A stretch of DNA of 64,000 nt from Deltaproteobacteria bacterium (GTDB lineage: Bacteria > Desulfobacterota > Desulfomonilia > UBA1062). Where the stretch lies: positions 64,438-128,437 of the forward strand of contig JAKPDW010000077.1 in NCBI GenBank assembly GCA_029552245.1, written 5' to 3'. Below, piece after piece: positions 7,998-56,470 of the stretch (the stretch's first letter is position 1; each line of letters opens with the position of its first letter). The position numbers and the translations under genes are program-made. The notes below the pieces were generated by a model. That model was not told the DNA's origin, searched no databases, and saw only the letters and a program-made list of their open reading frames with translations.

Positions 7998-8082
7998 TGA
8001 AAGCCTGCGCGCACAGGGCCGCCCAAGCATCATTGCCGGAGACCAAGGCAACGTTGCCTGAAAGTCTGCGTGTACAGGGCCG
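7998..8082. repeat. Intergenic direct-repeat pair A (24 nt x2, period 61)
   Basis: TGAAAGCCTGCGCGCACAGGGCCG (7998-8021) and TGAAAGTCTGCGTGTACAGGGCCG (8059-8082), 3 C/T differences; between convergent tatA and paaK. Confidence 0.75.
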
Positions 8083-8146
8083 TGCGGCCCTCCGGCAGGC
8101 GAGGGAACCCTGGCCGCCCGACCGCACCGGTGCCTCTCAAAGACGC

Positions 8147-9436
8147 CTAGGTCGTCCGGTTGTCCACGACCCGGACCGCCTTGCCCTGGGCCACGGGTAT
8201 CCCTCCCGGTTCCGTGAGAACGACCTCGGGGGTGACCAGGATCTCGTCCCTGAGCTCCCTCACGATCCGCTTCCTCAGTTCCTCAAGCGACCGGTAGTCG
8301 TCGATGGAGAGGTGCGCGTCGATCTCGACCTTGACGGTGATGTGGTCGTTGTGCCCCCTGGACTCGAGGATGACCTGGTAGTTTCTTCCCACGCCTGGAA
8401 TGCCTATGAGAACCGCCTCGATCTGCATGGGGAAGATGTTCACGCCCTTGAGGATGATCATGTCGTCGCTGCGGCCTGCTATCCGCGAGATGCGGCGGTG
8501 TGTCCTGCCGCAGGGGCACGGTTCGTCCGACAGCGTCGTCAGGTCCTTGGTGCGGTACCTGAGGATCGGCATGGCCTCCCGCTCGAGGGTCGTGATGACC
8601 AGTTCCCCCTGCATACCCGGGGCCACGGGCTCGAGCGTGACCGGGTCGACCACCTCCACGAGGAAGGCGTCCTCCCAGATGTGCATGCCGTTCTTCTCCG
8701 GGCACTCGAAGGCCACGCCCGGACCGTTCATCTCCGAGAGGCCGTAGGAGTTGTACGCCTGGATGCCGAAGAATTCCTCCACTTTCCTCCTCGTCTCCTC
8801 GGTATGCGGCTCCGCGCCCAAGAGGGCGTACTTGAACGAGGGGAATTCACGTCTCGGGTCGATGCCGAGCTTCTCCACCTCGTCGGCCAGGTGAAGGGCA
8901 TAGCTCGGGATCACGTGTATCACGCTCACCCCGAAGTCCTTCATGAACTTGAGCTGGCGTTTCGTGTTCCCGGGCCCTGTGGGGATGGTGAGGCACCCAA
9001 GGCGTTCGGCGCCGTAGTGGAGACCGAGCCCCCCCGTGAAGAGGCCGTATCCGATCATGTTCTGGAACACGTCACCCTTGCGCACGCCTATCATGTAGAG
9101 GCAGCGCGCCACGAGGTCGGTCCAGCGGTCGATGTCTTTCTTCGAATGGTAGACCACGGTGGGCGTGCCGGTGGTCCCGGAGGAGGAGTGGAGCCTCACC
9201 ACGTCGTCGAGGGGGCAGCTCAGCATCCCGAAGGGATACGCCTCGCGAAGGTCGTCCTTGGTGGTGAACGGCAGCTTCCTGACGTCCGACAGGTCCCTCA
9301 CCTCGATCTCGCCGAGGCCCTTGGCCCGGTAGAAGGGGGATCGAGCCGCCCTCCGTACCGTCTCCCTCAGCCGGGCGAACTGGAGCCGGGCGAGATCCTC
9401 AGGCCCTATGCACTCGTTTCTTTCGTCCCAGTACAT
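8147..9436 (-). CDS. paaK: Phenylacetate-CoA ligase family protein
   Basis: RLHSSSGTTGTPT AMP-binding motif, YGLSEMNGPG, RYRTKD, GRSDDMIILKGVNIFP; start MYWDERNE at 9436. Confidence 0.92.
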   Translation of the reverse strand: MYWDERNECIGPEDLARLQFARLRETVRRAARSPFYRAKGLGEIEVRDLSDVRKLPFTTKDDLREAYPFGMLSCPLDDVVRLHSSSGTTGTPTVVYHSKKDIDRWTDLVARCLYMIGVRKGDVFQNMIGYGLFTGGLGLHYGAERLGCLTIPTGPGNTKRQLKFMKDFGVSVIHVIPSYALHLADEVEKLGIDPRREFPSFKYALLGAEPHTEETRRKVEEFFGIQAYNSYGLSEMNGPGVAFECPEKNGMHIWEDAFLVEVVDPVTLEPVAPGMQGELVITTLEREAMPILRYRTKDLTTLSDEPCPCGRTHRRISRIAGRSDDMIILKGVNIFPMQIEAVLIGIPGVGRNYQVILESRGHNDHITVKVEIDAHLSIDDYRSLEELRKRIVRELRDEILVTPEVVLTEPGGIPVAQGKAVRVVDNRTT

Positions 9437-9631
9437 GTTCGTTCCCCCTGTGGAAAGCTGCGGCGCCATGCGAGACCGGCACTTCGAGCTCCATGCCACC
9501 CGGTCCAGGGTCATGCCCTGCCGGGGGAAGAGGGCCCGGCCAGCTGCTCAAGCCCCGCCCCCCGTGCCGGGAGCCACCCCACACCCCGCGGTCGGGGGGA
9601 AACGGGTACGCCCCCTCGACCGGGCAGGGCC

Positions 9632-10024
9632 TTACTTGCCCCCGGCAGGGGCCTGCGCCGGCGTGCCGACCGGAGAGGGTGTCGCGGGAACACCCGTCGG
9701 TGCACCCGCGGCGGGAGCGGACGTGCCCGCCCGCCCCGAGGGCGCCTGCTGCGTCGCTGCAGGAGCCTTGGACATGACGCTCGTGCTCGGCCTTTCCAGA
9801 TTGAAGAACCCGAGCGTGAGCGAGGTGAGCATGAACACGACGACCATGACAAGGGTTGCCTTCTTGATGAAATCCACGGGTCCGGCCGTCCCGAAGAGGG
9901 CCTGGCTCCCGGCGCCGCCGAAGACCGCCCCTATCTCGGCGCCTTTCCCCGCCTGGATGAGCACCGCGATGACAAGGCCTATGCACACGATAATGTGGAT
10001 GACCAGGATGAAGTTGTAGAGCAT
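9632..10024 (-). CDS. secG: Preprotein translocase subunit SecG
   Basis: LVIAVLIQAGKGAEIGAVFGGAGSQALFG; follows tpiA; Pro/Ala-rich tail. Confidence 0.93.
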   Translation of the reverse strand: MLYNFILVIHIIVCIGLVIAVLIQAGKGAEIGAVFGGAGSQALFGTAGPVDFIKKATLVMVVVFMLTSLTLGFFNLERPSTSVMSKAPAATQQAPSGRAGTSAPAAGAPTGVPATPSPVGTPAQAPAGGK

Positions 10025-10028
10025 GTCT

Positions 10029-10784
10029 CTATCCCCTGTACTTCACTATTCTCTCGAACGACTCGGGCTCGAGGCTCGCGCCCCCTACTAAGACGCCGTC
10101 AATGTCGGGTTCGGCCATGAGCTCGTCCACGTTGTCGGGCTTCACGCTGCCGCCGTAGAGGATCCTTATCCGTGAGGCCGCCTGGGGGCCGAGTATCTTC
10201 GACAAGACCTCCCGGATGAAGGCGTGAACCTCCTGGGCGATCGAGGGCGTGGCCGTCCTGCCTGTCCCGATCGCCCACACGGGCTCGTAGGCAACGGCCA
10301 GAGAAGAAGCTCCCTCCTGGCCCAGGCCGTGGAGCCCCCTCTCGATCTGCTTTCCCACCACCTCGAGGGTCAGGCCGGCCTCCCGCTCGCTCAAGGTCTC
10401 GCCCACGCATACCACGGGCGAGAGCGAGGAGCGCAAGGACGCATGGACCTTCCTGTTCACCCCCTCGTCGGTCTCCCCGAACAGCTGCCTGCGCTCCGAG
10501 TGCCCTATGATGACGTGCGTCGCCCCCGCGCTCTTCAGCATGGGCGCGCTCACCTCCCCTGTGAATGCGCCCTGGTCCTCGTGGTGGACGTTCTGGCCGC
10601 CGAGGAGCACGTTCGTGCCCGCGAAGACCTGCGCCAACGCGTGGATCGCCACGAAGGGCGGGCAGATGAGGATGTCCCTCGCGTCGACGTGGGCCACCTT
10701 CGGCGCGAATGCGCGGGCGAAGGCCAAGGCCTCCTCCAGGCCCTTGTACATCTTCCAGTTTCCCGCTATCAGCGGCCTTCTCAT
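10029..10784 (-). CDS. tpiA: Triosephosphate isomerase
   Basis: IAGNWKM, IIGHSERR, AYEPVWAIGTG, ILYGGSV, LVGGASL. Confidence 0.98.
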   Translation of the reverse strand: MRRPLIAGNWKMYKGLEEALAFARAFAPKVAHVDARDILICPPFVAIHALAQVFAGTNVLLGGQNVHHEDQGAFTGEVSAPMLKSAGATHVIIGHSERRQLFGETDEGVNRKVHASLRSSLSPVVCVGETLSEREAGLTLEVVGKQIERGLHGLGQEGASSLAVAYEPVWAIGTGRTATPSIAQEVHAFIREVLSKILGPQAASRIRILYGGSVKPDNVDELMAEPDIDGVLVGGASLEPESFERIVKYRG

Positions 10785-10793
10785 GCGTCTTCC

Positions 10794-11975
10794 CTACTTC
10801 TCGAGCGCCTCCACGCCGGGCAGGACCCGGCCGCCCAGCATCTCGAGGAAGGCGCCCCCCGCCGTCGAGACGAAGCTCACCTTGTCGGACAGGCCGCTCG
10901 CGTGAAGTGCAGCATCTGTATCACCCCCGCCCACGATGGTCAAGCCCGGCGAGGAAGCGACGGCCTTTGCGACCGACATGGTGCCCAAGGCGTAGTCCTT
11001 CACCTCGAAGACCCCCATGGGGCCGTTCCAGACGATCGTCCTGCACCCGTCCAGGGCCTCAGAGAAGAGCTTTGCCGTCGCGGGGCCGATATCCAGCCCC
11101 ATGAGGTCCGAGGGCATCTCCTGTATGGTCCTGACGAGGGCCTGCCCCGCTGTCTTGGGATCCGGGCCGCACACGCAGTCCACCGGGAGATAGAACTTCA
11201 CCTTCCGGGCTTTTGCCTTCTCCATGATTTCCCTGGCCTTCCCGACGAGGTCTTCTTCCACGAGGGACCTGCCCACGTCCTGGCCGAGCGCCTTCACGAA
11301 GGTAAAGGCCATGCCGCCGCCCACGAGGATCTTGTCCGCCTTCTCGAGGAGGTTCTCGACGATCTCGAGCTTGTCGGACACCTTGGCCCCCCCGAGGATC
11401 GCCGCAAAGGGTCTCGCCGGGTCCGTCAGCACCCTCGTGATGTACTTGACCTCCTTCTCCATGAGGAAGCCGGCTGCGGTTTCCTTCACGTACGGGCACA
11501 GCCCCGCGGTGGAGGCGTGGGCCCTGTGGGCCGTTGCGAAGGCGTCGTTCACGTACACGTCGCACAGGGCGGCCAGTTCCTTCGCGAACCCCTCATCGTT
11601 CTTCTCCTCCTCGGGGTGGAAACGCAGGTTCTCGAGCAGGAGCACCTCACCGGGGGCCAGCGCGTCGACCATGGACTTCACCTTCTCGCCGACGCAGTCC
11701 GGCGCCATGTTGACGCTCGTTCCCAAGAGCTCGGAAAGCCTCCTGGCCACAGGGATGAGGCTGAGCTTCTTGTCAGGCTTCTTGGGCCTGCCGAGGTGCG
11801 ACATGAGGATCACGCGCCCGCCCTTGCCCATGACGTGCTGTATGGTGGGCAGCGCCGCCCTGATCCGCGCGTCGTCCGTGATCGATCCATGCTCGTCGAG
11901 CGGGACGTTGAAATCCACCCTGATCAAGACCCTCTTCCCCTTCACGTCGAGATCCGAGACGGAACGTACGGCCAT
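10794..11975 (-). CDS. pgk: Phosphoglycerate kinase
   Basis: RVDFNVP, SHLGRP, LLENLRF, VNDAFATAHRAHAS, WNGPMGVFE, STAGGAFLE; start MAVRSVSDL at 11975. Confidence 0.98.
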   Translation of the reverse strand: MAVRSVSDLDVKGKRVLIRVDFNVPLDEHGSITDDARIRAALPTIQHVMGKGGRVILMSHLGRPKKPDKKLSLIPVARRLSELLGTSVNMAPDCVGEKVKSMVDALAPGEVLLLENLRFHPEEEKNDEGFAKELAALCDVYVNDAFATAHRAHASTAGLCPYVKETAAGFLMEKEVKYITRVLTDPARPFAAILGGAKVSDKLEIVENLLEKADKILVGGGMAFTFVKALGQDVGRSLVEEDLVGKAREIMEKAKARKVKFYLPVDCVCGPDPKTAGQALVRTIQEMPSDLMGLDIGPATAKLFSEALDGCRTIVWNGPMGVFEVKDYALGTMSVAKAVASSPGLTIVGGGDTDAALHASGLSDKVSFVSTAGGAFLEMLGGRVLPGVEALEK

Positions 11976-12147
11976 GGCAATCCCTCCCCGTCTTGTGTAG
12001 TGTGCATCGGATGGATGCTTCCCGGTCCATCGGCTGGATGTGCTCCGAGTTCCCCCCGGCCTCCCGGCCGACGCGGCATATTGTTCATACCACAAAGCTC
12101 CGATATTGTATATGTGTTATCGATACCATGGGAGGCAGACGAGAACG

Positions 12148-12825
12148 GTGACCGACCCCCGAGACAGCACCCCGGGCATCGAGGCGGCGATCGGCCACAG
12201 GGTCGAGGCCATGGTGAGGGCCCTGGTGCAGGGGAACCTTCACCGTGCGTCAAGGACGGCCAAAAGGCTCAGGGAAGAGGAGGCCCTCGTTGGCAGGAAC
12301 ATAGCCCTGGGCAATCTTGTCGAATCCACGGCGCTCGTCCAGGCCATGAAGATCGGCCTCCTCAACCTCCCCTCCACCCTGCCGGGCCCGGGGACCGTGA
12401 TCGCGTGGATCCTCATGGGGGTCGAGGACTTCTACAACCTCGACGGGATCGTGTCGCTGGTCACGGCCATAGCCCTGTTTGCGGGTCACGACGCGCATGA
12501 CGTCGAGGGCCTGGAGGAGCTGGCGCTCTCGATCGTGGGCCGCGTGTACGGTATCGAGGATGCAGGGTCCGATGGGTCTCGAAAGAGGACGGCGTGGAGG
12601 CTCTTCTCCCGCCTGGTGCCGAGGCAGTATGCCGTGAAGGGGGTCAACAGGTGGGTGAAGGGCTTCCTTCGCAGGCTTTTGCGCCTGAGGAGGAAGTCGA
12701 GGCTCCTGCCCATGGGGCTGGGCGTCGCCGCATCCGCATGGGACGCCTACAACCTCGTCGTCAAGGCGGGGATGCTCGCCCAGGCCGAGGCGACGCGCAT
12801 GGCGCGGGTCGGGGCTCGATCATGA
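12148..12825 (+). CDS. Hypothetical protein, possibly EcsC-like
   Basis: GTG start after GGAGG; amphipathic helical pattern with GLLNLPSTLPGPG and LLPMGLGVAASAWDAYNLV resembles EcsC-family proteins. Confidence 0.5.
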   Translation: MTDPRDSTPGIEAAIGHRVEAMVRALVQGNLHRASRTAKRLREEEALVGRNIALGNLVESTALVQAMKIGLLNLPSTLPGPGTVIAWILMGVEDFYNLDGIVSLVTAIALFAGHDAHDVEGLEELALSIVGRVYGIEDAGSDGSRKRTAWRLFSRLVPRQYAVKGVNRWVKGFLRRLLRLRRKSRLLPMGLGVAASAWDAYNLVVKAGMLAQAEATRMARVGARS

Positions 12826-12944
12826 GGGGAACGTCACCCACCGACCAGGCGGTCTCGAGGGGGTCGTGCAGGTGACCGTGGGCGTCCAGGTGTTGCGTTT
12901 GCCGGGTTTTCCACCGTGCACCGGGGATCCGGCTAAGATCCCTG

Positions 12945-13373
12945 CTAGAGCCGATAGAGCTCCTTGTCCCAGAGCTTGACCCAGTTCCTCTTGAGGACGT
13001 CCGTCGCGGTCTTGAGGTGGTCCACCTCCATGATGATGATCGGGTTGGCGACCCTCCCGATGTAGGGGTACATGGTGATCACGTTGACCTTGGCGTCACG
13101 CAGGGGCTTGAGCACGGCGTTCATGCCGCCCGGATGGTCGGGCATCTCCACCGCCAGGACGTCCACCTCCTCGAACTCGATATTCTCGACCGCGAAGGCG
13201 TTCTTCGCCTTCTTCGTATCGTCCACCACGACACAGATGGACGATACGTCCTTCGATTCCTGGCCCACGGAAATGGCCCTGATGTTCACCCCGTGCTTTG
13301 CGAGGACATCGGAGAGGTAGGAGAGCTTTCCCGATACGTTGGCAGTCTGGAGCCGGTACTGTTTGACGGACAT
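12945..13373 (-). CDS. Tandem ACT-domain protein
   Basis: NVSGKLSYLSDVLAKHGVNIRAI and DHPGGMNAVLKPLRDAKVNV are two ACT repeats; ends the oxidoreductase operon. Confidence 0.88.
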   Translation of the reverse strand: MSVKQYRLQTANVSGKLSYLSDVLAKHGVNIRAISVGQESKDVSSICVVVDDTKKAKNAFAVENIEFEEVDVLAVEMPDHPGGMNAVLKPLRDAKVNVITMYPYIGRVANPIIIMEVDHLKTATDVLKRNWVKLWDKELYRL

Positions 13374-13377
13374 GTCC

Positions 13378-13923
13378 TCATAACTCCTTCGACAGGTAGT
13401 CGTACCCCGCCTTCAAAGCCTCGATGTTCGTGTCCTTGAAGCGAGCCTTCGCCTTTCCGAGGATCTCCTCCATGCGCTCGATCATGGTCTCGAGCCTCAC
13501 CTGCCGCGTCCTGCACACTAAGGCGCCGAGCATGACCATGTTCGCGTACTGTTCACCCGTGCATCCCCGAGCGATCTCGGTGGCCGGGATCTCCACGATC
13601 TCCACGTCGGTCCTGCCTGGCCTCCCGGTGACGATGCTCGTGTTGACGTAGATCTCGCCGCCCGAGGCGGCCATGCTCTGGAGCCTCATGAGGGACTCGT
13701 TGTCCATGATCACGAGGTAATCCGGGGAAGAGGCCACCGGTGAGGCTATCTCCTCGTCGGATATGGCCACGGTGCAAGAGGTCACCCCTCCGCGCATCTC
13801 TGCACCGTAGGAGGGCAGGTAGGTCACTTCCCTTCCCTCGAACATGGCGGTCCACGCGAGACAGAGCCCGGAGAACAGGATCCCCTGTCCGCCGATGCCG
13901 CTCATGACCGTCTTCTGGAGCAT
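13378..13923 (-). CDS. 2-oxoacid:ferredoxin oxidoreductase gamma subunit
   Basis: SGIGGQGIL, PSYGAEMRGG, NMVMLGAL. Confidence 0.93.
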   Translation of the reverse strand: MLQKTVMSGIGGQGILFSGLCLAWTAMFEGREVTYLPSYGAEMRGGVTSCTVAISDEEIASPVASSPDYLVIMDNESLMRLQSMAASGGEIYVNTSIVTGRPGRTDVEIVEIPATEIARGCTGEQYANMVMLGALVCRTRQVRLETMIERMEEILGKAKARFKDTNIEALKAGYDYLSKEL

Positions 13924-13924
13924 G

Positions 13925-14686
13925 TCAGCCTTCCTTCTTCTGTGCTGCCTTCGTCACGTCCTTGAGGACGCCCGGTGGGTATTCCTTTTCCATGCGTTCC
14001 TCGAGATACCTGAGCGCCTCCACGGGGCTCACCTTCCAGTTGGTGGGGCAAGGCGAGAGCACCTCGACGAGCGAGTACCCCAGGCCCTCGAGCTGGACCT
14101 CGAAGGCCTTCCTCAGCGCCTTCTTCGTCGCGATGACCTTCGCGGGCGTGGCGAGCGAGGTTCGTACCACGTACGCGGCCCCGTCGAGCTGGGCCACGAG
14201 CTCCGTGATCTTGAGGGGGTAGCCCTCGACGACAGACCTCCTGCCGAACGGCGAGGTGGTGGTCTTCTGGCCTATCATGGTGGTGGGCGCCATCTGCCCT
14301 CCAGTCATACCGTAAACCGCGTTGTTGACGAAGATGGAGGTGATGCGCTCCCCCCTGTTCGCTGCGTGAATGGTCTCGGCCGTTCCTATGGCGGCCATGT
14401 CGCCGTCACCCTGGTAGGTGAAGACGAAGCGGTCGGGCAGTGCACGCTTGATGCCCGTGGCGATGGCGCAACCCCTTCCGTGAGCCGACTCGCACACGTC
14501 GATGTCGAAGTAGTTGTACGCGAGCACCGCGCACCCCGCAGGGGGCACGCAGATCGCCTTGCCTCTGAGATCCATCTCGTCGATGAGCTCGGTCACGAGC
14601 CTGTGGATGATCGAGTGGCCGCATCCGGGGCAGTAGTGGAAAGGCGTCTGCTTGAGGCTCTGGGGCCTGGAGAACACCTTCTTCAT
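13925..14686 (-). CDS. 2-oxoacid:ferredoxin oxidoreductase beta (TPP-binding) subunit
   Basis: YCPGCGH, YQGDGD, NNAVYGMTGGQ, LSPCPTNW; start MKKVFSRP at 14686. Confidence 0.94.
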   Translation of the reverse strand: MKKVFSRPQSLKQTPFHYCPGCGHSIIHRLVTELIDEMDLRGKAICVPPAGCAVLAYNYFDIDVCESAHGRGCAIATGIKRALPDRFVFTYQGDGDMAAIGTAETIHAANRGERITSIFVNNAVYGMTGGQMAPTTMIGQKTTTSPFGRRSVVEGYPLKITELVAQLDGAAYVVRTSLATPAKVIATKKALRKAFEVQLEGLGYSLVEVLSPCPTNWKVSPVEALRYLEERMEKEYPPGVLKDVTKAAQKKEG

Positions 14687-15756: not shown

Positions 15757-15961
15757 GGTACACCTCGATGGCCACTTCGGGGCACATGGTGGCACACAGG
15801 CCGCAGCCCCTGCACAGCTCCACGACGAACTCGGCGGGGTGATACCCTTTGGTGTTGAAGGTCTCGGCGATGCGGATCGCCTGCTCGGGACAGACGGTGA
15901 CGCACAGCTCGCAACTCTTGCACAGGCTCTGGTCTATGATGATCTTTCCCTTTGCTGCCAT
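15749..15961 (-). CDS. 2x[4Fe-4S] ferredoxin (oxidoreductase delta subunit)
   Basis: CKSCELCVTVCP and CRGCGLCATMCP; start MAAKGKIII at 15961. Confidence 0.93.
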   Translation of the reverse strand: MAAKGKIIIDQSLCKSCELCVTVCPEQAIRIAETFNTKGYHPAEFVVELCRGCGLCATMCPEVAIEVYRG

Positions 15962-16409
15962 ATCCTTCTTCGGTACCCGTCTCGGGAATCCGTGGAAATG
16001 TAGCATCAAAACGCCATCCTGTACAGAGCATTTTGCGCACCGCGGACGCCGGCGGCCGTGACCCTCGCATGGTCGTCCCCGAAGAGTCGGGACGGACATC
16101 CGGGCAGCCCTCCTCTGGCATCCGAGGCCGGGCGCCAGCACACATGATCGGGGAGGGCTCGGCTCCTGCTTACGGGCGGGCCCCGGGACAGAGGGGAAAC
16201 CCGGACGAACACGTACATGCTCTCGTCCTCGGCGGTGTCACCGGGCATGCCGTTCGCCGACCCCCCTTCACCAGGGTCACGAGGCGGACCGCTGCCCGCC
16301 CGGGACACGTTGCCCCCGGATCCCCTCGGCAGCCGACGACCCCCCGTTCCCACGATGGCGCCAGGGGGCGGCAGGCATCTTTCAGGCCCGCTCGCCGGTA
16401 CAGCCACCC

Positions 16410-16436
16410 CTTGAAATCCCGGGAAGAGACCCTACT
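16410..16436 (+). promoter_or_regulatory. Putative RpoH (sigma-32)-type promoter of the hsp20 cluster
   Basis: CTTGAAA-N14-CCTACT; near-identical motif upstream of clpB. Confidence 0.6.
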
Positions 16437-16474
16437 GTACCATTGGAAATCGAGAAACACCCCACAGGAGGTGA

Positions 16475-16936: not shown

Positions 16937-16959
16937 GAAGGCAGAAGGAGGTGACGACC

Positions 16960-17364: not shown

Positions 17365-17391
17365 CCAAACCACGAAAAGGAGGGACAGACC

Positions 17392-18239: not shown

Positions 18240-18330
18240 CCACCCTCCATGCGCCAGGGGCGTGACATGCCGGCAGGCCGGGTATTTCAGGCTCGGCCTG
18301 ACCCACCTTCCATGCGCCCGGGGGGTGACA
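18240..18330. repeat. Intergenic direct-repeat pair B (28 nt x2, period 63)
   Basis: CCACCCTCCATGCGCCAGGGGCGTGACA (18240-18267) and CCACCTTCCATGCGCCCGGGGGGTGACA (18303-18330), 3 mismatches. Confidence 0.72.
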
Positions 18331-18589: not shown

Positions 18590-18598
18590 AAGAAGTGA

Positions 18599-23230: not shown

Positions 23231-23319
23231 CATACCCCCTTCGACGTCGGGGCCATGCGCAGCTCATTGGCCTTCTCGGTGGCCGCCCGCCCATACCCCC
23301 TTCCACGTCGGGGCCATGC
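23231..23319. repeat. Intergenic direct-repeat pair C (28 nt x2, period 61, 33-nt spacer)
   Basis: CATACCCCCTTCGACGTCGGGGCCATGC (23231-23258) and CATACCCCCTTCCACGTCGGGGCCATGC (23292-23319), 1 mismatch; degenerate copy near 23106-23134. Confidence 0.82.
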
Positions 23320-25351: not shown

Positions 25352-25543
25352 TGCACCCGTTCCCTCCCCCCAGGCGCCATCGGCTCGCCCAGCCGGGCCG
25401 GGATCGAGGCCTGCCGCGACCCACACACCCTTTCGCCTGCACCTCCACACCGTGTGGACCGGGGACGAGGCCCGGGCGGCTTCCGCCTGAAGCGGCCTCG
25501 GGCTCGGGGATCACCGCTCATCACGCACGCAGGGCGCCTCGGT

Positions 25544-25686
25544 GACCGCACACGGGGGTACGGGCATGACTCGATCGCCGGTCTCTTGAAGCCACGCCTA
25601 TCAGACCGCATACGGACGGGCATGCCGTTCGGGGACCTCATTGATGGCGGGAAAAAATATCAGGCCGCACACGGACGGGCATGCCG
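25544..25686. repeat. Intergenic mini-array E (29 nt x2 plus one degenerate copy; period 59-60)
   Basis: TATCAGACCGCATACGGACGGGCATGCCG (25599-25627), TATCAGGCCGCACACGGACGGGCATGCCG (25658-25686), 30-nt spacer; degenerate GACCGCACACGG(GGGT)ACGGGCATG at 25544. Confidence 0.8.
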
Positions 25687-25866: not shown

Positions 25867-28248
25867 TCACCCTAACGCTATGGCGGTCCTCGCGATGATC
25901 TCGTCCTTGACCGAGTCAGGCAGCTCGTCGAAGTATGCGCAATACCCGGCCACCCTGACCACGATCCCGGGGTACCTGCCCGGGTGCCGCCTCGCCTCGG
26001 CGAGAAGCGCCGGGTCCAAGACGTTGAGCTGCACCTCCATGCCTTTCCGGTCGAAGAACCCTTGCACGAGCGCCCCCACGATATCCACGGCCTCCCCGCG
26101 GGAGAAAGAGCCCACGTCGATGAGGAGGTTCAGGGCATACCCGTTGGGGCAGAGCGTCGCATCGATGGAAGCGACCGAGTTGAGCAGGGCGGTGGGGCCC
26201 TGCCTGTCGCACCCGTTGCAGCACCCCATGCTTGCCGCAAAGGGTCGTCCGGCCTTTCGGCCGCTCGGCAGGGCCCCGGTGCGTCTCCCGAAGGCCACGT
26301 GGGTGGTGGACGAGTAGAAGCCGGGGATGTAGGGGCCTCCCCGGGTGTTCGTGTACCCGGCGAGCGCGTCGTGGAAGGTGCGCACCACGAAACCGGCGTA
26401 TCTCTCCGGCAGGCCGTGGTCGTTGCCGAACTTCGGCGCCGACGCGAGCGCCGCCCGTACCGTCTCGTACCCCTGGAAATCGTGCAGCACGGCCTCGAGC
26501 ACCTCCTCGAGGCTGTGCGTTCTCCTGGAGAAGACAACCTCGTCGATGGCGGCGAGCGAGTCCGCGACGTCCGCGACGCCGACGCCCTGGATACCGCTCG
26601 AGTTGCGGCGGGCCCCGCCGGCGGTCACGTCCCTTCCGCTCTCGAGGCAACCCTGCACGAGCATGGAACTGAAGGGCGTGGGGTGGAAATCCCTGTTGGC
26701 CCGCTCTATCACGCGGATGTCCCGCACGAGTCTCTCCACCATGTGCTCCACCTGGGTCTTGAAGGCCCCCATGACGTCGTCCATGGACCTCAACTCCCTC
26801 ACGTGCGGTGTCCGCGCGCCCACCCTGAAGGGAGACCCGGGCCTCCTGCCGGAGTTGAGCGCAAGGAGCAGGCACATGGGCAGGTTGAACAGGGCCGCAT
26901 CGGTCGAGCAGAAGCTCCTGCCGGGCAGGGTCGGCTCCACGCAACCCACGATCGCGTAGTCCCGGGCCTCAGCCGTGGAGTAGCCGTGGGCGGTGAGAGC
27001 CTTTACGACAGCCTCGTCGCTGAACAGGCCGGGGACCGCGTTTCCCCTGCACGCCACCTCGACCGCCCGTCGGACATACGCGGGGTCCGACGACACGCTG
27101 ATGCGCGCCATGTAGTTCGGGTCGCGCAGCCTGGCGTTCTCCATGACGTCGAGGAAGATCCAGGTGAGATCGTTGACTGCGTCATTGCCCTCGGCGTCCA
27201 CCCCTCCCACGGTCGCCGCCTGGGCCACGAGGTACCCGCCGTGGTACTCGCTGATCCCGCTCGAGAGCAGGAACATGTGCTCGGTGGTCTTCGCGGAGAA
27301 GCACAGGAGCAGCTCGTAGGCCTTCTCCCTCGTCATGCGCCCCGCTTTTCTGTCGGCCTCGTAGAAGGGGTAGAGATACTGGTCTACGCGGCCCAGGCTG
27401 ACGGCCGAGTTGAGGCCCTCGAGGCATACGGCCAGGTGGGTGAGCCAGAGCGACTGGAGCGCCTCGTGGAACGTGCCGGCAGGCTTCATGGGCACCTTCG
27501 CACAGATCCTCGAGATCTCGAGCAGTTCCTCTCTTCTCGACAAGTCCCTCTCCTTGAGCGCCGCACGTCGCGCCTCTTCCGACAGCCTGGCCGAAAACGC
27601 CGCCAGGCCCTCGCACGCTATGCGGGCGGCCGCATGCAGATCTCCCCCGTCGCGGTCCAGAGACTCGAGGAACCCCTCTATGCCGAGCTTGAGCATGGCC
27701 TCGTAGCCGGGCAGAAAGTGCCCGATGCCCCCGCCCTCGTTGATGAGGTAGTACTTCGCGTCGAGCTGGTCTGCGAGATACCTGAAAAGCCTCGGGTTGT
27801 ACCAACCGAAGGCCCTCGCCACCATGTTCCTGGAAAGCCAGTACGGTATCACCTTGGCCAGGAGGCGGAACTTGTCCTTGAGGGGAACCTTGTACGGGTT
27901 GTTCCGTCTCCTGCCCATCCAGAGGATCTCGTAACACATGACCGCGCCTGCGAGCTCGGGCTGCATGATCACCGACTTCCTGTGGGAACCCACGTTGCCT
28001 ACGATGAGCTCGTCGTCGAAGATCCTGGCCGACTTGTTCTGCAGGATATGCCTGAGCGCCTTGGCCTTCCTGACGACCATGGGCTCGTTCGGGTCGTCGT
28101 GGTGTTTGAAGAAGTCCGTGACGAGCACGGCACGTTCGGTGCACAGGCGCTCACCCTGGGAGAGCAATGCCCGCCTGATCCGCTCGAACCTTTCAGGCAC
28201 CGCCTGGTTCGAGCCTCTTTCCGCGTATACGCCCCCGGTCACCTTCAC
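25867..28248 (-). CDS. Glycyl radical enzyme (PFL-like family), GRE-2, function unknown
   Basis: 793 aa; Cys-loop AIVGCVEP; glycyl motif VVRVAGYCAYF; SLGRVDQYLYPFY. Confidence 0.93.
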   Translation of the reverse strand: MKVTGGVYAERGSNQAVPERFERIRRALLSQGERLCTERAVLVTDFFKHHDDPNEPMVVRKAKALRHILQNKSARIFDDELIVGNVGSHRKSVIMQPELAGAVMCYEILWMGRRRNNPYKVPLKDKFRLLAKVIPYWLSRNMVARAFGWYNPRLFRYLADQLDAKYYLINEGGGIGHFLPGYEAMLKLGIEGFLESLDRDGGDLHAAARIACEGLAAFSARLSEEARRAALKERDLSRREELLEISRICAKVPMKPAGTFHEALQSLWLTHLAVCLEGLNSAVSLGRVDQYLYPFYEADRKAGRMTREKAYELLLCFSAKTTEHMFLLSSGISEYHGGYLVAQAATVGGVDAEGNDAVNDLTWIFLDVMENARLRDPNYMARISVSSDPAYVRRAVEVACRGNAVPGLFSDEAVVKALTAHGYSTAEARDYAIVGCVEPTLPGRSFCSTDAALFNLPMCLLLALNSGRRPGSPFRVGARTPHVRELRSMDDVMGAFKTQVEHMVERLVRDIRVIERANRDFHPTPFSSMLVQGCLESGRDVTAGGARRNSSGIQGVGVADVADSLAAIDEVVFSRRTHSLEEVLEAVLHDFQGYETVRAALASAPKFGNDHGLPERYAGFVVRTFHDALAGYTNTRGGPYIPGFYSSTTHVAFGRRTGALPSGRKAGRPFAASMGCCNGCDRQGPTALLNSVASIDATLCPNGYALNLLIDVGSFSRGEAVDIVGALVQGFFDRKGMEVQLNVLDPALLAEARRHPGRYPGIVVRVAGYCAYFDELPDSVKDEIIARTAIALG

Positions 28249-47014: not shown

Positions 47015-47063
47015 TTGACATGCGTTCACCCGTTTACTATTGACAACAATATGCAAAATATTG
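47015..47063 (+). promoter_or_regulatory. Promoter and AT-rich palindrome (candidate Fur box) at the fur start
   Basis: TTGACA at 47015-47020; CAATAT-GCAAA-ATATTG palindrome at 47047-47063 overlaps the ATG. Confidence 0.4.
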
Positions 47064-49852: not shown

Positions 49853-49920
49853 CAATACATCCAGAGGCCCGCAGGCCAAGGCACAAAAACGAGCCCGGAC
49901 CGCCCAGCGTGAGCCCGGCG

Positions 49921-50071
49921 GCGACGGCCGTGCGTGCCCGGGCCTTCGGCCTGATGCGGCTGGATAGTTGGGACTGGTCGCGCGACGGCCGTGCGTGCGC
50001 GGGCCTTCGGCTTCTGTAGGTCTGCCAGCGCCGCCAGGATCGCGACTGCCGTGCGTGCGCAGGCCTTCGGC
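49921..50071. repeat. Intergenic mini-array D (30 nt x3, spacers 31 and 30 nt)
   Basis: GCGACGGCCGTGCGTGCCCGGGCCTTCGGC (49921), GCGACGGCCGTGCGTGCGCGGGCCTTCGGC (49982), GCGACTGCCGTGCGTGCGCAGGCCTTCGGC (50042); spacers unrelated. Confidence 0.9.
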
Positions 50072-50572
50072 ACCGTCGAGCACCAGCGAACGCGGACCGT
50101 CGAGGCCGACCCTACCCTCGGGGCCGGTCTTCCTCGCGTGCTCCATCTCGACAAGGACGATCGAGCATGGCCTTGTCGATTCCGCAGCCCGACCTGAAGA
50201 CCCGAGGCACTTCCCCCGCAGGCCCCAACGGGGCGTGGGAGGCCCTTACGAGAAGGCCGATCCTCCAAGCTCGAGAGACGAGCATTCTCGCCCTGTCTTC
50301 CATGCGCCGCGTTGACCTGGGACCGTCCCGTGATGTCGTCCCATGCGCGCACATGCCTTTCCACCGCGTTCCACAGGCAAGAAGGGTGGGTGTTAAGAGA
50401 AAGTACAACGCACGGGCCCCCCTTTCCCGTCATGACACACCTCTTTCACCTGGCCGGTTGACAAAAGGAGGGATCTGATTTATTGAATTATCGATTCTTT
50501 TGTTCGATTGTTCGTGAATCTCGCGACCGTGCACAGATGGATGGAATCTCATTACAAAGGGGGATCGTAACG

Positions 50573-51226
50573 ATGACAGAGGCCACCATTCAGGCTTTGA
50601 ACGGGCTCAGGGACCTGACCATGGTCAAGTGGTACATCATCCCGCTGCTTGCGATCGTGTTCTACATCTACACGAAAGAGATCAAGGCCGCCAAGCAAAG
50701 CGGCGACTGGAATGCGGTCTTCGCGGGCGCCACGATCTTCGGCGTGGACTTCTTCAACGAGACCTGGAACGGGTGGGTGCTCCACTTCACGCAGAGAAGC
50801 GCCTTCTGGACAACGCCTGGCGACACGGCGCTCCGCACCATGGTGGGCTGGAACATAGAGATCATGTTCATGTTCTCCCTCGTGGGCATCATCTTCTACC
50901 ACACCCTCACCGAGGGCAGGAAGGTGAAGATCCTGGGACTCCCGGAGATGTGGTTCTGGGCGATCGCTTACTCGGCCTTCTGCGTGTTCGTCGAGTGCCT
51001 CCTCAACATCGGCGGTCACCTGGTGTGGGAATACCCCTTCTGGAACCTCTCCCTCAAGGGCGTGCCCCTCATCTTCCTCATAGGCTACTTCCACTTCTTC
51101 TGCGCCGCGATATGGGTCATCACGCGAAAGACCATGAAGGCCAAGATCGCCCTCCTGGTGCTGTTCTACAGCGTACCCGCGGTCATGAACATCCTGGCCT
51201 TCGGCGTGTTCGGGTGGAACTACTGA
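50573..51226 (+). CDS. Hypothetical polytopic membrane protein
   Basis: About 6 aromatic-rich TM segments; clean coding pattern; RBS AAAGGGGG. Confidence 0.75.
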   Translation: MTEATIQALNGLRDLTMVKWYIIPLLAIVFYIYTKEIKAAKQSGDWNAVFAGATIFGVDFFNETWNGWVLHFTQRSAFWTTPGDTALRTMVGWNIEIMFMFSLVGIIFYHTLTEGRKVKILGLPEMWFWAIAYSAFCVFVECLLNIGGHLVWEYPFWNLSLKGVPLIFLIGYFHFFCAAIWVITRKTMKAKIALLVLFYSVPAVMNILAFGVFGWNY

Positions 51227-51605
51227 CAGGGCACGGTACCCAAAGACACCCTGTCCTGCCTTGGGGGGCGCGATCCTCGCCCCCCGCCCACCGGGCCTCG
51301 GTGCCCGCCAGCTGGTGGGCCGTCTCTCAACGCGCCGGGGGCTCACCACGGCACCTCGAGGGTCGGGGACACGGGGAGGGCTCGTTGCTCTTCACGGCGC
51401 CGAACGGGCACCGCACGAGGGGTCGCGGGCCGAGGGCGGGCGTGTGACGCACCGGGCGACGTCCATGCATGCGTCAGGGGGCACGGGCTTGTCGTCGGCC
51501 GCCAAGCCCCCTTTTCGCGGACCGGGCACAGCTCTCCCCCGGTTTCCCTGCGGGGATCGCCCGTCCCCGCGGACCCGGAGTTCAGGGAGAGGGGACCGGC
51601 ATGGG

Positions 51606-52889
51606 TCATGCCGACCCGGCCGAGGCCAATGCCTGCTCTATGTCCGCAAGGATATCGTCTATGTGCTCGATCCCCACGGAAAGCCTTATGAAGTCGTCAG
51701 TGACCCCGGTCGAGGCCCTCTCCTCTCTCGTGAGCTGCTGGTGGGTGGTGCTTGCCGGGTGGATGGCCAGTGTCCTCACATCCCCTATGTTCGCGACATG
51801 GGATATGAGCTTCAGCGCATCGATGAATCTCCGGCCCGCTTCCATCCCCCCCCGGATGCCGAACCCCACGATGGCCCCCGCGCCCATGGGCAGGTATCTC
51901 TTCGCCTTTTCGTTCTGCGGGCTCGACTCGAGCCCGGGGTAATTCACCCAGGCCACCGACGGGTGCCGCTCGAGGTACCTCGCGACTTCAAGGGCGTTCT
52001 CCGAGTGCCTGATCATGCGCAGGTGTAGGGTTTCGAGGCCCTGGATAAAGAGGAAGGCATTGAACGGGCTCATCGCGCAGCCGAGGTCCCTCAGGAGATC
52101 GACCCGCGCCTTCACGATGTACGCCATGTTCCCGAAGGTCTCGGGGAAGACCGTCCCATGGTAGCCGGGGTCAGCTTCGGTGATGAGCGGGAAGTCCCCC
52201 CGGGACCAGTCGAACCTCCCCGAATCCACGATGACACCCCCCATCGAGGTGCCGTGGCCGCCGATGAACTTGGTCGCGGAATACACCACGATGTCCACGC
52301 CGTGATCGAATGGCCTCAACAGGTACGGGGTCACCGTGTTGTCGAGCACGAAGGGGACTCCAAAGCCGTGCGCGATCAGGGAAACGAGCTCGAGGTCGGT
52401 CACGTCGAGCTTGGGGTTCCCTATGGACTCGGCGTAGACCGCCTTCGTCCTCGGTCCTATGGCTTTTTCGAGCGCGCCCGGGTCTTCGGAGGGGACGAAC
52501 TTCACGTTTAAGCCCAGGCGGCTCAACGTGTGACGGAAGAGGTTGTAGGTCCCCCCGTAGAGGTTGTCGAGCGCCACGATCTCGTCTCCAGGCCCGGCGA
52601 TGTTCAGGAGGGCGAGGGCGATCGCCGACTGCCCGCTGGAGACCCCGAGCGCCCCCACGCCCCCGTCCATCATGGCCAGGCGCCTCTCGAGGACATCGGT
52701 GGTGGGGTTCATGATCCTCGTGTAGATGTTCCCCTGTTCCTCGAGGGAGAAGAGCCTGGCGGCGTGGTCCGTGTCCCTGAACAGGTAGGAGGTGGTCTGG
52801 TAGATGGGCACGGCCCTGGCCAAGCTCTGGGCGTCGGGCGTGTGCCCGCCGTGGATCAGCATCGTCTCCGTCTTCATCGTGACCTCCAT
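51606..52889 (-). CDS. metY: O-acetylhomoserine aminocarboxypropyltransferase (sulfhydrylase)
   Basis: [45 protein letters not shown]. Confidence 0.95.
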
Positions 52890-53007
52890 CTCTCATTGAT
52901 TTGCCCGCTCCACCCATCGTGCGCTGAAGAGGCCGACGCACCTTCAGGGCGGCTCCCACCTCCAAGGCCAGGGGAGACACCTCGAGACATGCATCGCCCC
53001 TCCCTCG

Positions 53008-53916
53008 TCACGATCTGTGCATGAAGAGCCCCCTGAGGCACCTCCTCGCGCCGTGGATCACCTCGCGGGGCAGGACGATCTCGGGTTCCATCCGTTCCAA
53101 GGCCTGCAGGATCTTCTCGAGGGTGACGCGCTTCATGTTGGGGCAGAAGGCCTCCTCCGTCGCCGCGAAAAAACGCTTTCCCGGGTTCTCGCGCCTGAGC
53201 CGGTGAAGGATACCGGTCTCGGTCGCCACGATCACTTCGCGACCCTTCTCCTCCCTGGCATACCAGCACATCCCCTCGGTGGACAGGATGCGATCCGCAA
53301 GCCTCCTCACCTCACTGGTGCATTCCGGGTGCGCATAGACCACAGCATCGGGATGCCTGTTCTTCGCCTCCACGATGCATTCGTCCGTTATCGCCGTGTG
53401 CGTCGGGCAGAAGCCGCCCCACGACACCACGTCCGCGCCAGCCTGCTCCGAGGCGTATTCCGCGAGGTTGCCGTCAGGCACGAACACAAGTCGGGAGCCG
53501 TCCCTTGCCAGTTCTTTCACGACGCTCGCGGCGTTCGCCGAGGTGCAGCACATGTCACAGCCGGCCTTCACCTGGGCGGACGTGTTCACGTAGCAGAGGA
53601 TCTTGGCTCCCTCGTGCTCACGCCTCAAGGCGGTTATGTCCTCGGCCGTGATCATGTCCGCCAGCGGGCAGAGAGCGTCCATGTCAGGCAGGAGGACGGT
53701 CTTTCCGGGCGAGACGATCTTCGCGGTCTCGGCCATGAACCTTACCCCGCAGAACACGATCACTCCTGCGGCGGTCCCGGAGGCCTGTATGCTCAACCCC
53801 AGGGAGTCACCCACGAAATCCGCTAAGTCCTGCACCTCGGGCCTCTGGTAATTGTGGGCCAGGATCACAGCCCGCCGTTTTTTCTTGAGCCTCAAGATGT
53901 CCTCGACGATACCCAC
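53008..53916 (-). CDS. nadA: Quinolinate synthase
   Basis: LAHNYQ, FCGVRFMAETAK, YVNTSA, CPTH, AHPEC, CPNMK. Confidence 0.96.
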   Translation of the reverse strand: MGIVEDILRLKKKRRAVILAHNYQRPEVQDLADFVGDSLGLSIQASGTAAGVIVFCGVRFMAETAKIVSPGKTVLLPDMDALCPLADMITAEDITALRREHEGAKILCYVNTSAQVKAGCDMCCTSANAASVVKELARDGSRLVFVPDGNLAEYASEQAGADVVSWGGFCPTHTAITDECIVEAKNRHPDAVVYAHPECTSEVRRLADRILSTEGMCWYAREEKGREVIVATETGILHRLRRENPGKRFFAATEEAFCPNMKRVTLEKILQALERMEPEIVLPREVIHGARRCLRGLFMHRS

Positions 53917-53934
53917 GCGTCTTTCACCCTCTCC

Positions 53935-54375
53935 TCAGATCACGTACATGCAGGCCGCGTACGCCTTCTCCCTGCCTTTTCGCGCGAGGTCCTCGAGGGT
54001 GACCGAGGCGAGCGTCGAGGCGATACGATCAGTGATCTCGGCCCAGAGGTCGCGGCTCGGGCAATGTCCCGAACGGCTGCACGTGGACGGGTCGCCGACG
54101 CACTCCACGATGCACACACCCTTCTCGAGCACCTCCACGATCTCCTTCAAGGTGATCCGGGAGGCGGGCCTCGCGAGCCTGTACCCACCCTTGGCCCCAC
54201 GCTGCGCCACGATGAGACCGGCGGACTTGAGCGGGATCGCGATCAGGCTCAGGTACTTCTCGGACAACCCCTCTTCCCGCGCTATGTCCTTGAGGTACAC
54301 GGCGTTCTCGCCGCCCCTGAGCGCGAGATCCACCATGAACCTGACGCCGTAGCGTGAACGCGTCGACAGACGCAC
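53935..54375 (-). CDS. Rrf2-family regulator (IscR/CymR-like, Cys-ligated)
   Basis: MRLSTRSRYG, SEKYLSLI, RGAKGGYRLARP, EC-x6-C-x5-C. Confidence 0.92.
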   Translation of the reverse strand: MRLSTRSRYGVRFMVDLALRGGENAVYLKDIAREEGLSEKYLSLIAIPLKSAGLIVAQRGAKGGYRLARPASRITLKEIVEVLEKGVCIVECVGDPSTCSRSGHCPSRDLWAEITDRIASTLASVTLEDLARKGREKAYAACMYVI

Positions 54376-54390
54376 GACCCATTCCTTTCT

Positions 54391-54405
54391 CTACCTTTTT
54401 GGTAG
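54391..54405. promoter_or_regulatory. Palindromic candidate Rrf2 operator
   Basis: CTACC-TTTTT-GGTAG upstream of rrf2; related CTATT-TAATC-GGTAG at 54728-54742. Confidence 0.45.
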
Positions 54406-54701
54406 CATTTATACGCTTCGATCGGTCCTGTCAAGCCCACGTAGGGTGACGTGAACCCACGCCCCGGAGACTCGCCCCCCTCCGTACGCATGGATTGGGT
54501 ATACCCCGCCGCCTGAAAACGCCTTTCCCGCCTGCGGCCCACACAGGCACCGGTTCGCCCCCGGTCCCGTTCCCCGTCCTCGCAGGCCAGATCCACGCCC
54601 CATTCAGGCCGTCACCGGGAAAGCCACGGCCATGGCAAGCCACGAAAACGTTCACCGCCTCCTGCAGGACAAGGGCGACATCCCCCATTGTCATTCTCGG
54701 C

Positions 54702-54751
54702 TTGACACCCGTGGCCGCGTTCTTTTACTATTTAATCGGTAGAGTTTCTAC
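54702..54751 (+). promoter_or_regulatory. cysK promoter with overlapping candidate operator
   Basis: TTGACA-N18-TACTAT; overlapped by CTATT-N5-GGTAG and GTAGA-N3-TCTAC. Confidence 0.55.
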
Positions 54752-54800
54752 GGGTCGGCCTGAACGGGTCCATCGAGGGCGCTCTCTGCGGAGGTGAGGC

Positions 54801-55751
54801 ATGGCGAAGTACTTCCAGGACAATGCGAGATCCATAGGCAACACCCCCATGGTGAGGATCAACCGCATGGCGCAGGCAACCGGCGCACTGGTCCTCGCCA
54901 AGATCGAGGGCAGAAACCCGGCGTATTCCGTGAAATGCCGCATCGGTGCGGGCATGATCCGGAAGGCCGAGCAGGACAGGACATTGATGCCCGGAATGGA
55001 GATCGTGGAGCCCACGAGCGGGAACACGGGCATCGCGCTCGCCTTCGTGGCCGCCTCGCTCGGCTACCGCCTGCACGTGACCATGCCGGAGACCATGTCC
55101 CTGGAGAGACGCAAGGTGCTCGCCTTCTTCGGCGCAAACGTCATCCTGACGCCGGGCAGCCTGGGCATGAGGGGGGCGGTGGAGGAGGCGGAGCGCATCG
55201 TCGCCTCGGACAGGAAGTACTTCATGCCCCAGCAGTTCAAGAACCCCGCGAACCCGCAGACCCACTTCGAGACGACCGGGCCGGAGATCTGGGAACAGAC
55301 CTCCGGCGGCATAGACGTGCTCGTCTGCGGTGTGGGCACCGGCGGGACCATCTCCGGGGTCTCCCGCTACATCAAGAAGGACAGGGGCAAACCGATCCTG
55401 AGCGTGGCGGTCGAGCCGGCATCGAGCCCCGTCATCTCGCAGCGACTCTCAGGCATGCAGATCAGGCCGGGCCCGCACAAGATCCAGGGGATCGGCGCCG
55501 GCTTCATCCCCGACACCCTCGACCTCGACCTCGTTGACCGCGTGGAGAAGGTCACCGACGAGGAAGCCATCGAACACTCGCGGCGCCTCGCCAGGGAGGA
55601 AGGCATCCTCGCGGGCATCAGCTCCGGTGCGGCCATGGCCGCGGCCTTGAGGCTCGCCCGCATGGATGCCTTCAAGGGCAAGACCATCGTCGTGGTGCTC
55701 CCCGACTCGGGCGAGAGGTACCTCTCGAGCGTCCTCTTCGAAGGGGTGTGA
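54801..55751 (+). CDS. cysK: Cysteine synthase A
   Basis: [53 protein letters not shown]. Confidence 0.97.
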
Positions 55752-55761
55752 GGGTCTTGCC

Positions 55762-56238
55762 ATGAGAACTCGGGGATCCCCCGGCGCGCTCGGCGCCGTC
55801 GTGGCCTCCGTCAACGTGGGCTTGCGCGTCGGCCAGAAGAAGACCCCTGTCGCAGAGGCCGTCCTGGAGGAAGGTGCGGGCGTCATCGGGGACGCCCATT
55901 GCCGGACGCCACGCCAGGTGAGCCTGCTCGCGTACGAAAGCATCGAGAAGATGGTCTCCATGGGCCTGGATGTCGGCGCCGGGGACTTCGCGGAGAACAT
56001 CACCACGAAAAACGTCCTGCTGCACGAACTCCCGGTCGGGACGAGGCTCGCCCTGGGCGAAGGACCGATCGTCGAAATCACCTCGATTGGAAAGGCCTGC
56101 CATCGCCGGTGCGAGATATTCAGGAAAGCTGGCCACTGCATCATGCCGAGGGAGGGCGTATTCGCGAAGGTCATCAGGGGGGGAAAGATAAGGCCTGGGG
56201 ATACCGTCAGAATCCTCGGCCGGGCCTCCAGGCGTTAA
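55762..56238 (+). CDS. MOSC-domain protein
   Basis: GDAH, RQVSLL, GDFAENITT, EITSIGKACH, MPREGVFAKV. Confidence 0.9.
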   Translation: MRTRGSPGALGAVVASVNVGLRVGQKKTPVAEAVLEEGAGVIGDAHCRTPRQVSLLAYESIEKMVSMGLDVGAGDFAENITTKNVLLHELPVGTRLALGEGPIVEITSIGKACHRRCEIFRKAGHCIMPREGVFAKVIRGGKIRPGDTVRILGRASRR

Positions 56239-56470
56239 ACCGGGACCCTGTGGGCGTCGGCCCCCCGGGTGCGAGGCGTCGAGGCACGCACAGGGGCCAT
56301 GCGCAGCGTGGAGCTCGATCCCGCCGGGAATCGCGGCCGCAGGGGGAAGAGACCTAGCCGAACATACCCCGCTCCTTTAAGGACCAACCTGAGGGCGCCC
56401 CCATCGGCCATGGGAGAGAAGTCAGGGCGGATGACGAACCTTCCAGCGGGGGCCTGCCCTTTCAAATCCC

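Follow-up and report, generated by a model that had tools for sequence, protein, structure and literature searches.

Five intergenic loci in a 64,000-nt stretch of DNA from a wild, uncultured member of the Desulfomonilia carry two or three direct repeats of about 28 nt that are separated by unrelated sequences of 31-35 nt. The stretch, hereafter the window, is C56:64438-128437 of a 3.27 Mb genome of 64% G+C that is assembled in 95 contigs and, judged by its FeoB, belongs with uncultured Desulfomonilia / 'Deltaproteobacteria'. Its five loci have the geometry of CRISPR arrays and there is no cas gene in the window, which raises the question of what process creates such miniature arrays in ordinary intergenic DNA. 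A sequence-only reading had correctly placed the loci and observed the lack of cas genes, and considered the repeats to be an unnamed family that could represent processed RNAs, protein-binding arrays or footprints of a spacer-inserting process. The evidence presented below supports the last of these options. We consider it highly probable that the loci are scars of off-target spacer integration by Cas1-Cas2 outside of CRISPR arrays ("neo-CRISPR"). The combination of a repeat-length duplication, a spacer-length insert, a copy-paste origin of inserts, repeat-like targets and two size classes that match CRISPR subtypes is the expected product of full-site integration followed by gap repair. The assembly contains no adaptation genes, and we infer from these properties that the enzyme is Cas1-Cas2.

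Off-target integration at repeat-like sites has been demonstrated experimentally with the E. coli type I-E system (Nivala et al. 2018, as related in the citing papers 10.1101/148544, PMC7054753 and PMC11788318). A paper that cites Nivala et al. 2018 describes the natural frequency of such events as unclear, with no more than circumstantial evidence from two species. Additionally, Cas1-Cas2 of Pyrococcus furiosus catalyzes off-target full-site integration in vitro at repeat-like sites of a plasmid (Grainy et al. 2019, PMC6698737).

Two classes of repeat pairs with fixed periods

The whole genome was scanned for 24-nt windows that match the sequence d bases downstream in at least 21 of 24 positions, with d ranging from 26 to 200. 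Offsets of 59-63 nt gave 77 pairs, 44 of them at d = 61, and a second set of 67 pairs was obtained at offsets of 70-77 nt. Other offsets mostly exhibited 0-3 matches, or about 0.3 pairs per offset, with a small echo near offset 122 that is caused by loci with three or more units. The fixed period that had been noted in the window is thus well above chance genome-wide. Once the matches were chained and duplicates discarded, 129 loci with 154 inserts remained; 65 loci belong to what we term the 61 class (about 17 with three to five copies) and 64 to the 73 class, where all loci except one contain a single insert.

The two classes differ in the length of what is duplicated. The best ungapped segment shared by a pair is most often 28 nt long in the 61 class (19/78 pairs, with few above 30 nt) and 36 nt long in the 73 class, and both distributions exhibit a sharp upper edge. 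Among inserts of the 61 class the modal length is 33 nt, while those of the 73 class mostly measure 35-39 nt. Judged by these lengths, 28 plus 33 nt would be type I-E geometry and 36 plus 35-39 nt would be type I-G/III geometry. The duplicated lengths of 28 and 36 nt indeed correspond to the geometries of the type I-E array of a family relative (G023) and the type I-G array of a congener (G009). Beyond a weak motif that is described below, the repeats differ at every locus, so that 129 loci contain 129 repeats.

This individuality bears on the idea that many true CRISPR arrays were scattered as orphans by rearrangement and have since decayed into the present loci. Such an origin would account for the CRISPR-like geometry, and one true solitary repeat does exist on contig C23. 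However, the true arrays of one system share one repeat while the 129 repeats observed here differ, most loci contain only a single insert, and fresh loci with identical copies are already non-canonical in their repeat. Orphan arrays are thus a highly improbable source of these loci. Slippage, in which some 61 bp (or 73 bp) are duplicated locally in tandem and one half of the unit subsequently diverges, would leave copies that are head to tail, as is observed. At C2:15290-15367 there is one true tandem duplication, 78 nt long and with a period of 61 nt, which is not of the insert-plus-duplication type. Slippage nevertheless provides no reason for two fixed lengths throughout the genome, and it conflicts both with spacers that are wholly unrelated even where the repeats are 100% identical and with inserts that have distant sources. 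We therefore regard it as extremely improbable.

Two features of the multi-copy loci should be mentioned. In the four-copy array at C69:97371-97620 alternate "spacers" are similar to one another, which indicates a later duplication of about 125 bp over a two-unit array. Regarding polarity of growth, the newest insert can be dated in two arrays (C32:129633 and C95:123030), which give conflicting results with respect to the orientation of the motif, and a claim of array polarity was consequently dropped.

Origin of the inserts

A unique source elsewhere in the same genome was found for 22 of the 154 inserts, three of which are identical to their source at 32-33/33 positions. For example, the insert at C32:129661-129693 is a perfect copy of C95:99489-99521 (33/33), as is the insert at C47:31405-31437 of the minus strand of C49:9412-9444 (33/33) and the insert at C95:123180-123211 of the minus strand of C63:108781-108812 (32/32). 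The insert at C27:99779-99811 matches C56:40986-41018 at 32/33 positions, and an insert of the 73 class at C32:277614 matches C69:40297-40331 at 34/35. When insert and source are aligned with 32-40 nt of flank, similarity ends at the borders of the duplicated segments and the outer flanks are unrelated. Copies of the 61 class measure 33 nt, those of the 73 class 35-38 nt. Matches with E <= 1e-5 were obtained for 17/154 inserts as compared to 4/558 control segments of equal length located 300-400 nt away from the arrays; of the four matching controls, two belong to multi-copy repeats and one itself served as source for an insert.

The direction of copying can be deduced from the sources. Twenty of the 22 are located inside ordinary open reading frames (ORFs) with a G+C content at third codon positions (GC3) of 0.80-0.93, and their codon periodicity (0.42) resembles that of random DNA from the same genome (0.45). 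Thus, the gene is the donor and the intergenic copy is derived. Furthermore, identity between insert and source tracks identity between the repeat pair (Spearman rho = 0.53, p = 0.03), as is expected if repeat pair and insert both decay from the time of insertion onward.

Target sites and genomic location

An expectation-maximization (EM) motif search of the 28-nt duplicated segments, in which strand and small shifts were left free, recovered a weak shared motif, T-CCCC-N8-GGGG (consensus nnnnTCCCCGCGCGCGCGGGG). Its elements are T5, a C-rich arm at positions 6-9, a core of G10 C11 G12 C13 R14 C15 G16, and a G-rich arm at positions 18-21. The motif log-likelihood is 209, versus 55-84 for matched random intergenic sets. 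When compared to the type I-E repeat of G023 (GTGTTCCCCGCACACGCGGGGATGAACC), the consensus agrees at 15/17 of positions 5-21. Motif and repeat are also alike in layout, each consisting of 5 nt, a 4-nt arm, 8 nt, a second 4-nt arm and 7 nt, and thus share the same 5/7-nt asymmetry. Targets of the 61 class therefore resemble the cognate repeat, which those of the 73 class do not. An attempt to find the best-fitting register of the targets against the type I-E repeats of relatives gave ambiguous results, as the core of the motif is palindromic, and the EM motif was used instead.

This shared target preference explains why the five window loci had appeared related to the sequence-only reading. Relatedness holds at the level of the weak 28-nt motif but not for the direct matches between loci on which it had been based. 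In ungapped alignment, locus A agrees with reverse-complemented locus D at 12/23 positions instead of the 18/23 claimed, and locus E agrees with reverse-complemented locus D at 12/26 instead of 19/26; both values are at the level of random intergenic DNA. An inverted 14-mer (18240 / 25710) and a 15-mer (23249 / 56293) that had been put forward as links are indeed exact, and span or sit within repeats rather than inserts. However, chance would yield about one shared exact 14-mer where three are seen, so that the 14-mer, the 15-mer and a supposed "solo copy" at 56281-56307 carry no evidential weight. The latter is a single unduplicated sequence that is outside of this phenomenon.

The genome does not exceed a first-order Markov simulation in its frequency of sites that match the motif matrix. 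There is consequently no dispersed element, and the target sites are chance pseudo-repeats. Regarding location, a crude gene call based on GC3, which scores about 86% of the genome as coding, places 64/78 pairs of the 61 class and 45/67 pairs of the 73 class fully within non-coding DNA. Convergent, tandem and divergent intergenic contexts are occupied roughly in proportion to their length. We read this intergenic bias as the result of selection that removes insertions into genes, and not as targeting.

These results also bear on whether the loci are functional dispersed elements in which the repeat is conserved and the linker is free to vary, such as hairpins of the repetitive extragenic palindromic (REP) or bacterial interspersed mosaic element (BIME) type, protein-binding arrays or small processed RNAs. 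The loci do resemble REP/BIME elements in that they are intergenic and composed of partly palindromic units, and their regular period would fit a functional array. A REP family comprises numerous copies of a single consensus, its linkers are conserved, and it has a cognate Y1 transposase. All three properties are missing here, as every locus has its own repeat, motif-matching sites are not over-represented, and the Y1 / RAYT (REP-associated tyrosine transposase) family PF01797 is absent from the genome. In 22 cases the linker is proven to have been copied from a distant gene, the decay of repeat pairs parallels that of their inserts, and loci of this kind were not found in 1.06 Mb of DNA from relatives. 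The unnamed repeat family proposed earlier thus has nothing in common beyond the weak motif. A functional element is very unlikely, and the data can be explained without processed RNAs or protein-binding arrays.

Proposed mechanism of scar formation

We propose that a Cas1-Cas2 complex with type I-E measurements would attack both strands of ordinary intergenic DNA at positions 28 bp apart. Sites would be chosen by chance likeness to the repeat, with T5, arms rich in C (6-9) and in G (18-21) and a core of alternating YG as the recognized features. A fragment of spacer size, about 33 bp, would be joined in and repair of the gaps would then duplicate the 28-bp target, creating a target-insert-target arrangement with a 61-bp period. 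Loci with three to five copies would result from repeated use of one site. The 70-77-bp class outside of the window, with its little target preference, would be due to a second integrase that uses a 36-bp ruler and may be type I-G or type III associated. Since the pseudo-repeats are not the cognate repeat, the inserts would be immunologically silent and would presumably undergo neutral decay.

CRISPR-Cas in this genome and in relatives

The possibility that cas or RAYT genes are present outside of the window, which the sequence-only reading had raised, is borne out in part: the genome contains a type III-A operon and a solitary type I-G repeat, and neither cas1/cas2 nor a RAYT gene. The type III-A effector operon is located at C52:1-6622, on a contig that is broken at both ends and that was first detected through a search for the Cas3_HD family, which identified the Cas10 contig. 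It encodes Cas10/Csm1, Csm2, Csm3, Csm4 and Csm5, followed by a CARF/Csm6-like gene of which only the start is present, as the contig ends within it. The only canonical CRISPR repeat in the genome is a solitary 36-nt copy at C23:9008-9043, which matches the type I-G repeat of G009 at 34/36 positions. It lies upstream of a cation-efflux-like gene; an AT-rich stretch follows, and then the end of an IS1595-like transposase at the contig edge. These remains show that the organism has or had CRISPR-Cas and that the assembly is broken exactly at that locus. The missing adaptation genes are therefore weak evidence for their absence from the cell.

An identical 140-nt sequence is present at several contig ends, for example at the starts of C72, C70 and C22. 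It was considered as a CRISPR repeat and rejected, as it is the end of a multi-copy insertion sequence that breaks the assembly.

Both geometries are represented by intact systems in the lineage. In G023 a true type I-E array on contig C28, with a 29-nt repeat (GTGTT-CCCC-GCACACGC-GGGG-ATGAACC(G)) and a period of 61, adjoins genes for Cas3, Cse1, Cse2, Cas7e, Cas5e, Cas6e and Cas1. The type I-G locus of G009 has a 36-nt repeat with a period of 71-76 and encodes a Cas4-Cas1 fusion, Cas2, GSU0053/0054 and Cas3. Cas1 occurs in 3/15 genomes of the genus, and I-E-like Cas1 is found at the family and class level. As a side observation, a gene with a Bro-N domain is located between cas6e and cas1 of the G023 type I-E operon (L047:10353-11183).

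Scar pairs have a density of 44 per Mb in this genome. In contrast, the offset scan found no scar pairs of either class in the 1.06 Mb sampled from seven relatives (280 kb from G007, 120 kb from G014, 100 kb from G012, 160 kb from G023, 200 kb from G002, 100 kb from G003 and 100 kb from G008). Congeners are only 70-74% identical at feoB and are not syntenic.

Evidence against Cas1-Cas2 and the case for a different integrase

A number of observations weigh against Cas1-Cas2 as the responsible enzyme. The cas1 and cas2 genes and genes for Cas7e or the type I-E cascade are absent from a bin that is 99.3% complete, and a tblastn search with all ORFs from the cas loci of six relatives recovered only housekeeping neighbors. 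Cognate Cas1-Cas2 are thus not encoded in the assembly, which does not prove that the organism lacks them. Some scars nevertheless look fresh, with 28/28 identical repeats and a 33/33 identical insert. Two of the seven relatives whose samples are free of scars carry type I-E or I-G systems. The 36-nt targets exhibit neither a shared motif nor likeness to the I-G repeat. Additionally, a search for same-species genomes that could contain empty sites found none: the best match in metagenomes has 61% amino-acid identity, and an exact-protein look-up gave no match.

The remaining adverse points concern the inserts. For 132/154 inserts (86%), among them the window inserts, of which 0/7 have a secure source, the genome search did not find a source. 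As a set, the sourceless inserts have a codon periodicity of 0.30, versus 0.45 for 33-mers of the genome and 0.31 for its intergenic DNA, and given this low periodicity most of them are not recent copies of the organism's own coding DNA. Their G+C content of 0.62-0.63 is near that of the genome as compared to 0.69 in array-flanking DNA, and they may represent foreign DNA or DNA that has been lost. Searches for foreign sources gave zero matches for 30 young inserts against the INPHARED phages, for three young inserts against IMG/VR and for one against genome_contigs. Finally, a common flank that would constitute a protospacer-adjacent motif (PAM) was not seen at the 22 sources, nor was a conserved first base of inserts; a terminal G/C occurs in 11/16 inserts (p = 0.15), a small set in which the orientation of palindromic sites is ambiguous.

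Several of these points would be accommodated if the scars were made by an unknown integrase other than Cas1-Cas2, of cellular or mobile-element origin, that makes 28/36-bp staggered cuts and adds inserts of 33-37 bp. For example, such an enzyme would explain fresh-looking scars in a bin without cas1/cas2, sources without a PAM, and relatives that have I-E or I-G systems but no scars in the samples. Yet two CRISPR subtypes of the genus and family have exactly the dimensions of the two size classes, and the 28-nt targets match a real type I-E repeat in layout and at 15/17 core positions. The bin is also broken at its CRISPR-Cas locus, which renders the absence of cas1 a weak argument, and we know of no candidate enzyme, which also counts against this explanation. 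We consider it improbable. There is a small chance that an undiscovered integrase or trans-acting mobile element with the same ruler geometry writes spacer-sized copies into chromosomes without an adaptation module, and this is kept open by fresh scars without cas1/cas2, by the lack of a visible PAM and by the fact that most inserts are unlike the genome's own DNA. In a milder version, wild Cas1-Cas2 that has lost its array and leader would become a genome-wide insertional mutagen that seeds new CRISPR arrays.

Comparison with known systems and significance

Off-target integration by Cas1-Cas2 finds its closest counterpart in the neo-CRISPR loci of E. coli. According to the citing papers named above, those loci also consist of a 28-bp target duplication that flanks a 33-bp insert outside of the array, they form at repeat-like sites that are re-used into small arrays, and self-derived inserts occur. 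The E. coli loci arose in an over-expression experiment, as described in the same papers, whereas here they are found in a wild uncultured Desulfomonilia genome with 129 loci and 154 inserts covering a range of ages. This genome also differs in exhibiting a second class with a 36-bp ruler, no adaptation genes in the assembly and no PAM signal. The P. furiosus integrase likewise acts as a ruler, with paired attacks one repeat length apart at sites whose likeness to the repeat consists of a few bases conserved in position. That work concerns a different subtype with a 30-bp repeat, was performed in vitro and does not describe natural genomic scars (PMC6698737).

The canonical type I-E array of G023 (C28, repeat GTGTTCCCCGCACACGCGGGGATGAACCG) shares with the 61 class a period of 61, the lengths of repeat and spacer, and the layout of a C arm and a G arm. 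Unlike this array, the loci studied here have no repeat in common, contain one to four inserts each, lack a leader and adjacent cas genes, and include many inserts that are self-derived.

If the loci are integration scars, then a process that has so far been demonstrated mainly by over-expressing Cas1-Cas2 in engineered E. coli has left a natural record in this genome. More than 150 events of varied age, produced by two types of integrase, would make up this record, which would also provide an in vivo map of target requirements, with the I-E-like integrase needing two arms at fixed positions and the 36-bp integrase apparently needing little beyond its ruler. Additionally, a hidden cost of CRISPR adaptation could be measured as insertional load plus self-derived spacers, the latter being tolerated because the pseudo-repeats are not functional. 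CRISPR arrays could further arise de novo from such scars, which would offer many candidate seeds. A practical consequence for annotation is that what CRISPR finders report as orphan mini-arrays can be such scars.

The five loci of the window

All five loci of the window belong to the 61 class and have two or three copies. When searched with blastn-short against the 3.27-Mb genome, each repeat matches only its own locus. Since none of the seven inserts has a secure source, assignment of these loci is based on geometry and motif. At locus A, a 28-nt target (GATGAAAGCCTGCGCGCACAGGGCCGCC) at 7996..8023 is repeated at 8057..8084 with 22/28 identity (core 21/24) and a period of 61; the motif is oriented on the minus strand and the 33-nt insert at 8024..8056 has no source that the genome search could find. 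Locus B has a duplicated length of exactly 28 with 25/28 identity, with copies at 18240..18267 (CCACCCTCCATGCGCCAGGGGCGTGACA) and 18303..18330 (period 63) around a 35-nt insert at 18268..18302, for which a source was also not found in the genome. The duplicated length is likewise exactly 28 at locus C, where copies at 23231..23258 (CATACCCCCTTCGACGTCGGGGCCATGC) and 23292..23319 (period 61) are 27/28 identical. The target of locus C has a CCCC arm at positions 6-9 and a GGGG arm at 19-22, and its 33-nt insert (23259..23291) has a partial, insecure match to C28:28916-28941 (23/26, E = 0.002).

Loci D and E each contain three copies. The oldest copy of locus D, at about 25540..25569, is degenerate with a 2-nt indel relative to the other two, and was recognized by eye as it scored under the automatic threshold. 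It is followed by an older insert with a present length of about 29 nt (25570..25598), copy 2 at 25599..25626 (TATCAGACCGCATACGGACGGGCATGCC), a 31-nt insert at 25627..25657 without a source in the genome search, and copy 3 at 25658..25685 (period 59). Locus E begins with copy 1 at 49923..49950 (GACGGCCGTGCGTGCCCGGGCCTTCGGC), and its 33-nt insert 1 at 49951..49983, again without a source in the genome search, precedes copy 2 at 49984..50011 (period 61). Insert 2 (32 nt, 50012..50043) has only weak, insecure matches, which are a 23/32 match on C30 (E = 0.03) and a 20-nt exact word on C70, and is followed by copy 3 at 50044..50071 (period 60). Directly adjoining locus D is a gene for a PFL-like glycyl radical enzyme at window positions 25867-28248 (minus strand).

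A separate type of tandem element was observed in the congeners G007 (L058:7449-7660) and G002 (L116:11081-11300), which share a conserved core, GGACCCGTGG(C/T)TTTCCGGCCCATGGTTACC, with periods of 82 and 99-100 nt. This core is absent from the arrays studied here, and the element may be a structured RNA or an array of binding sites.

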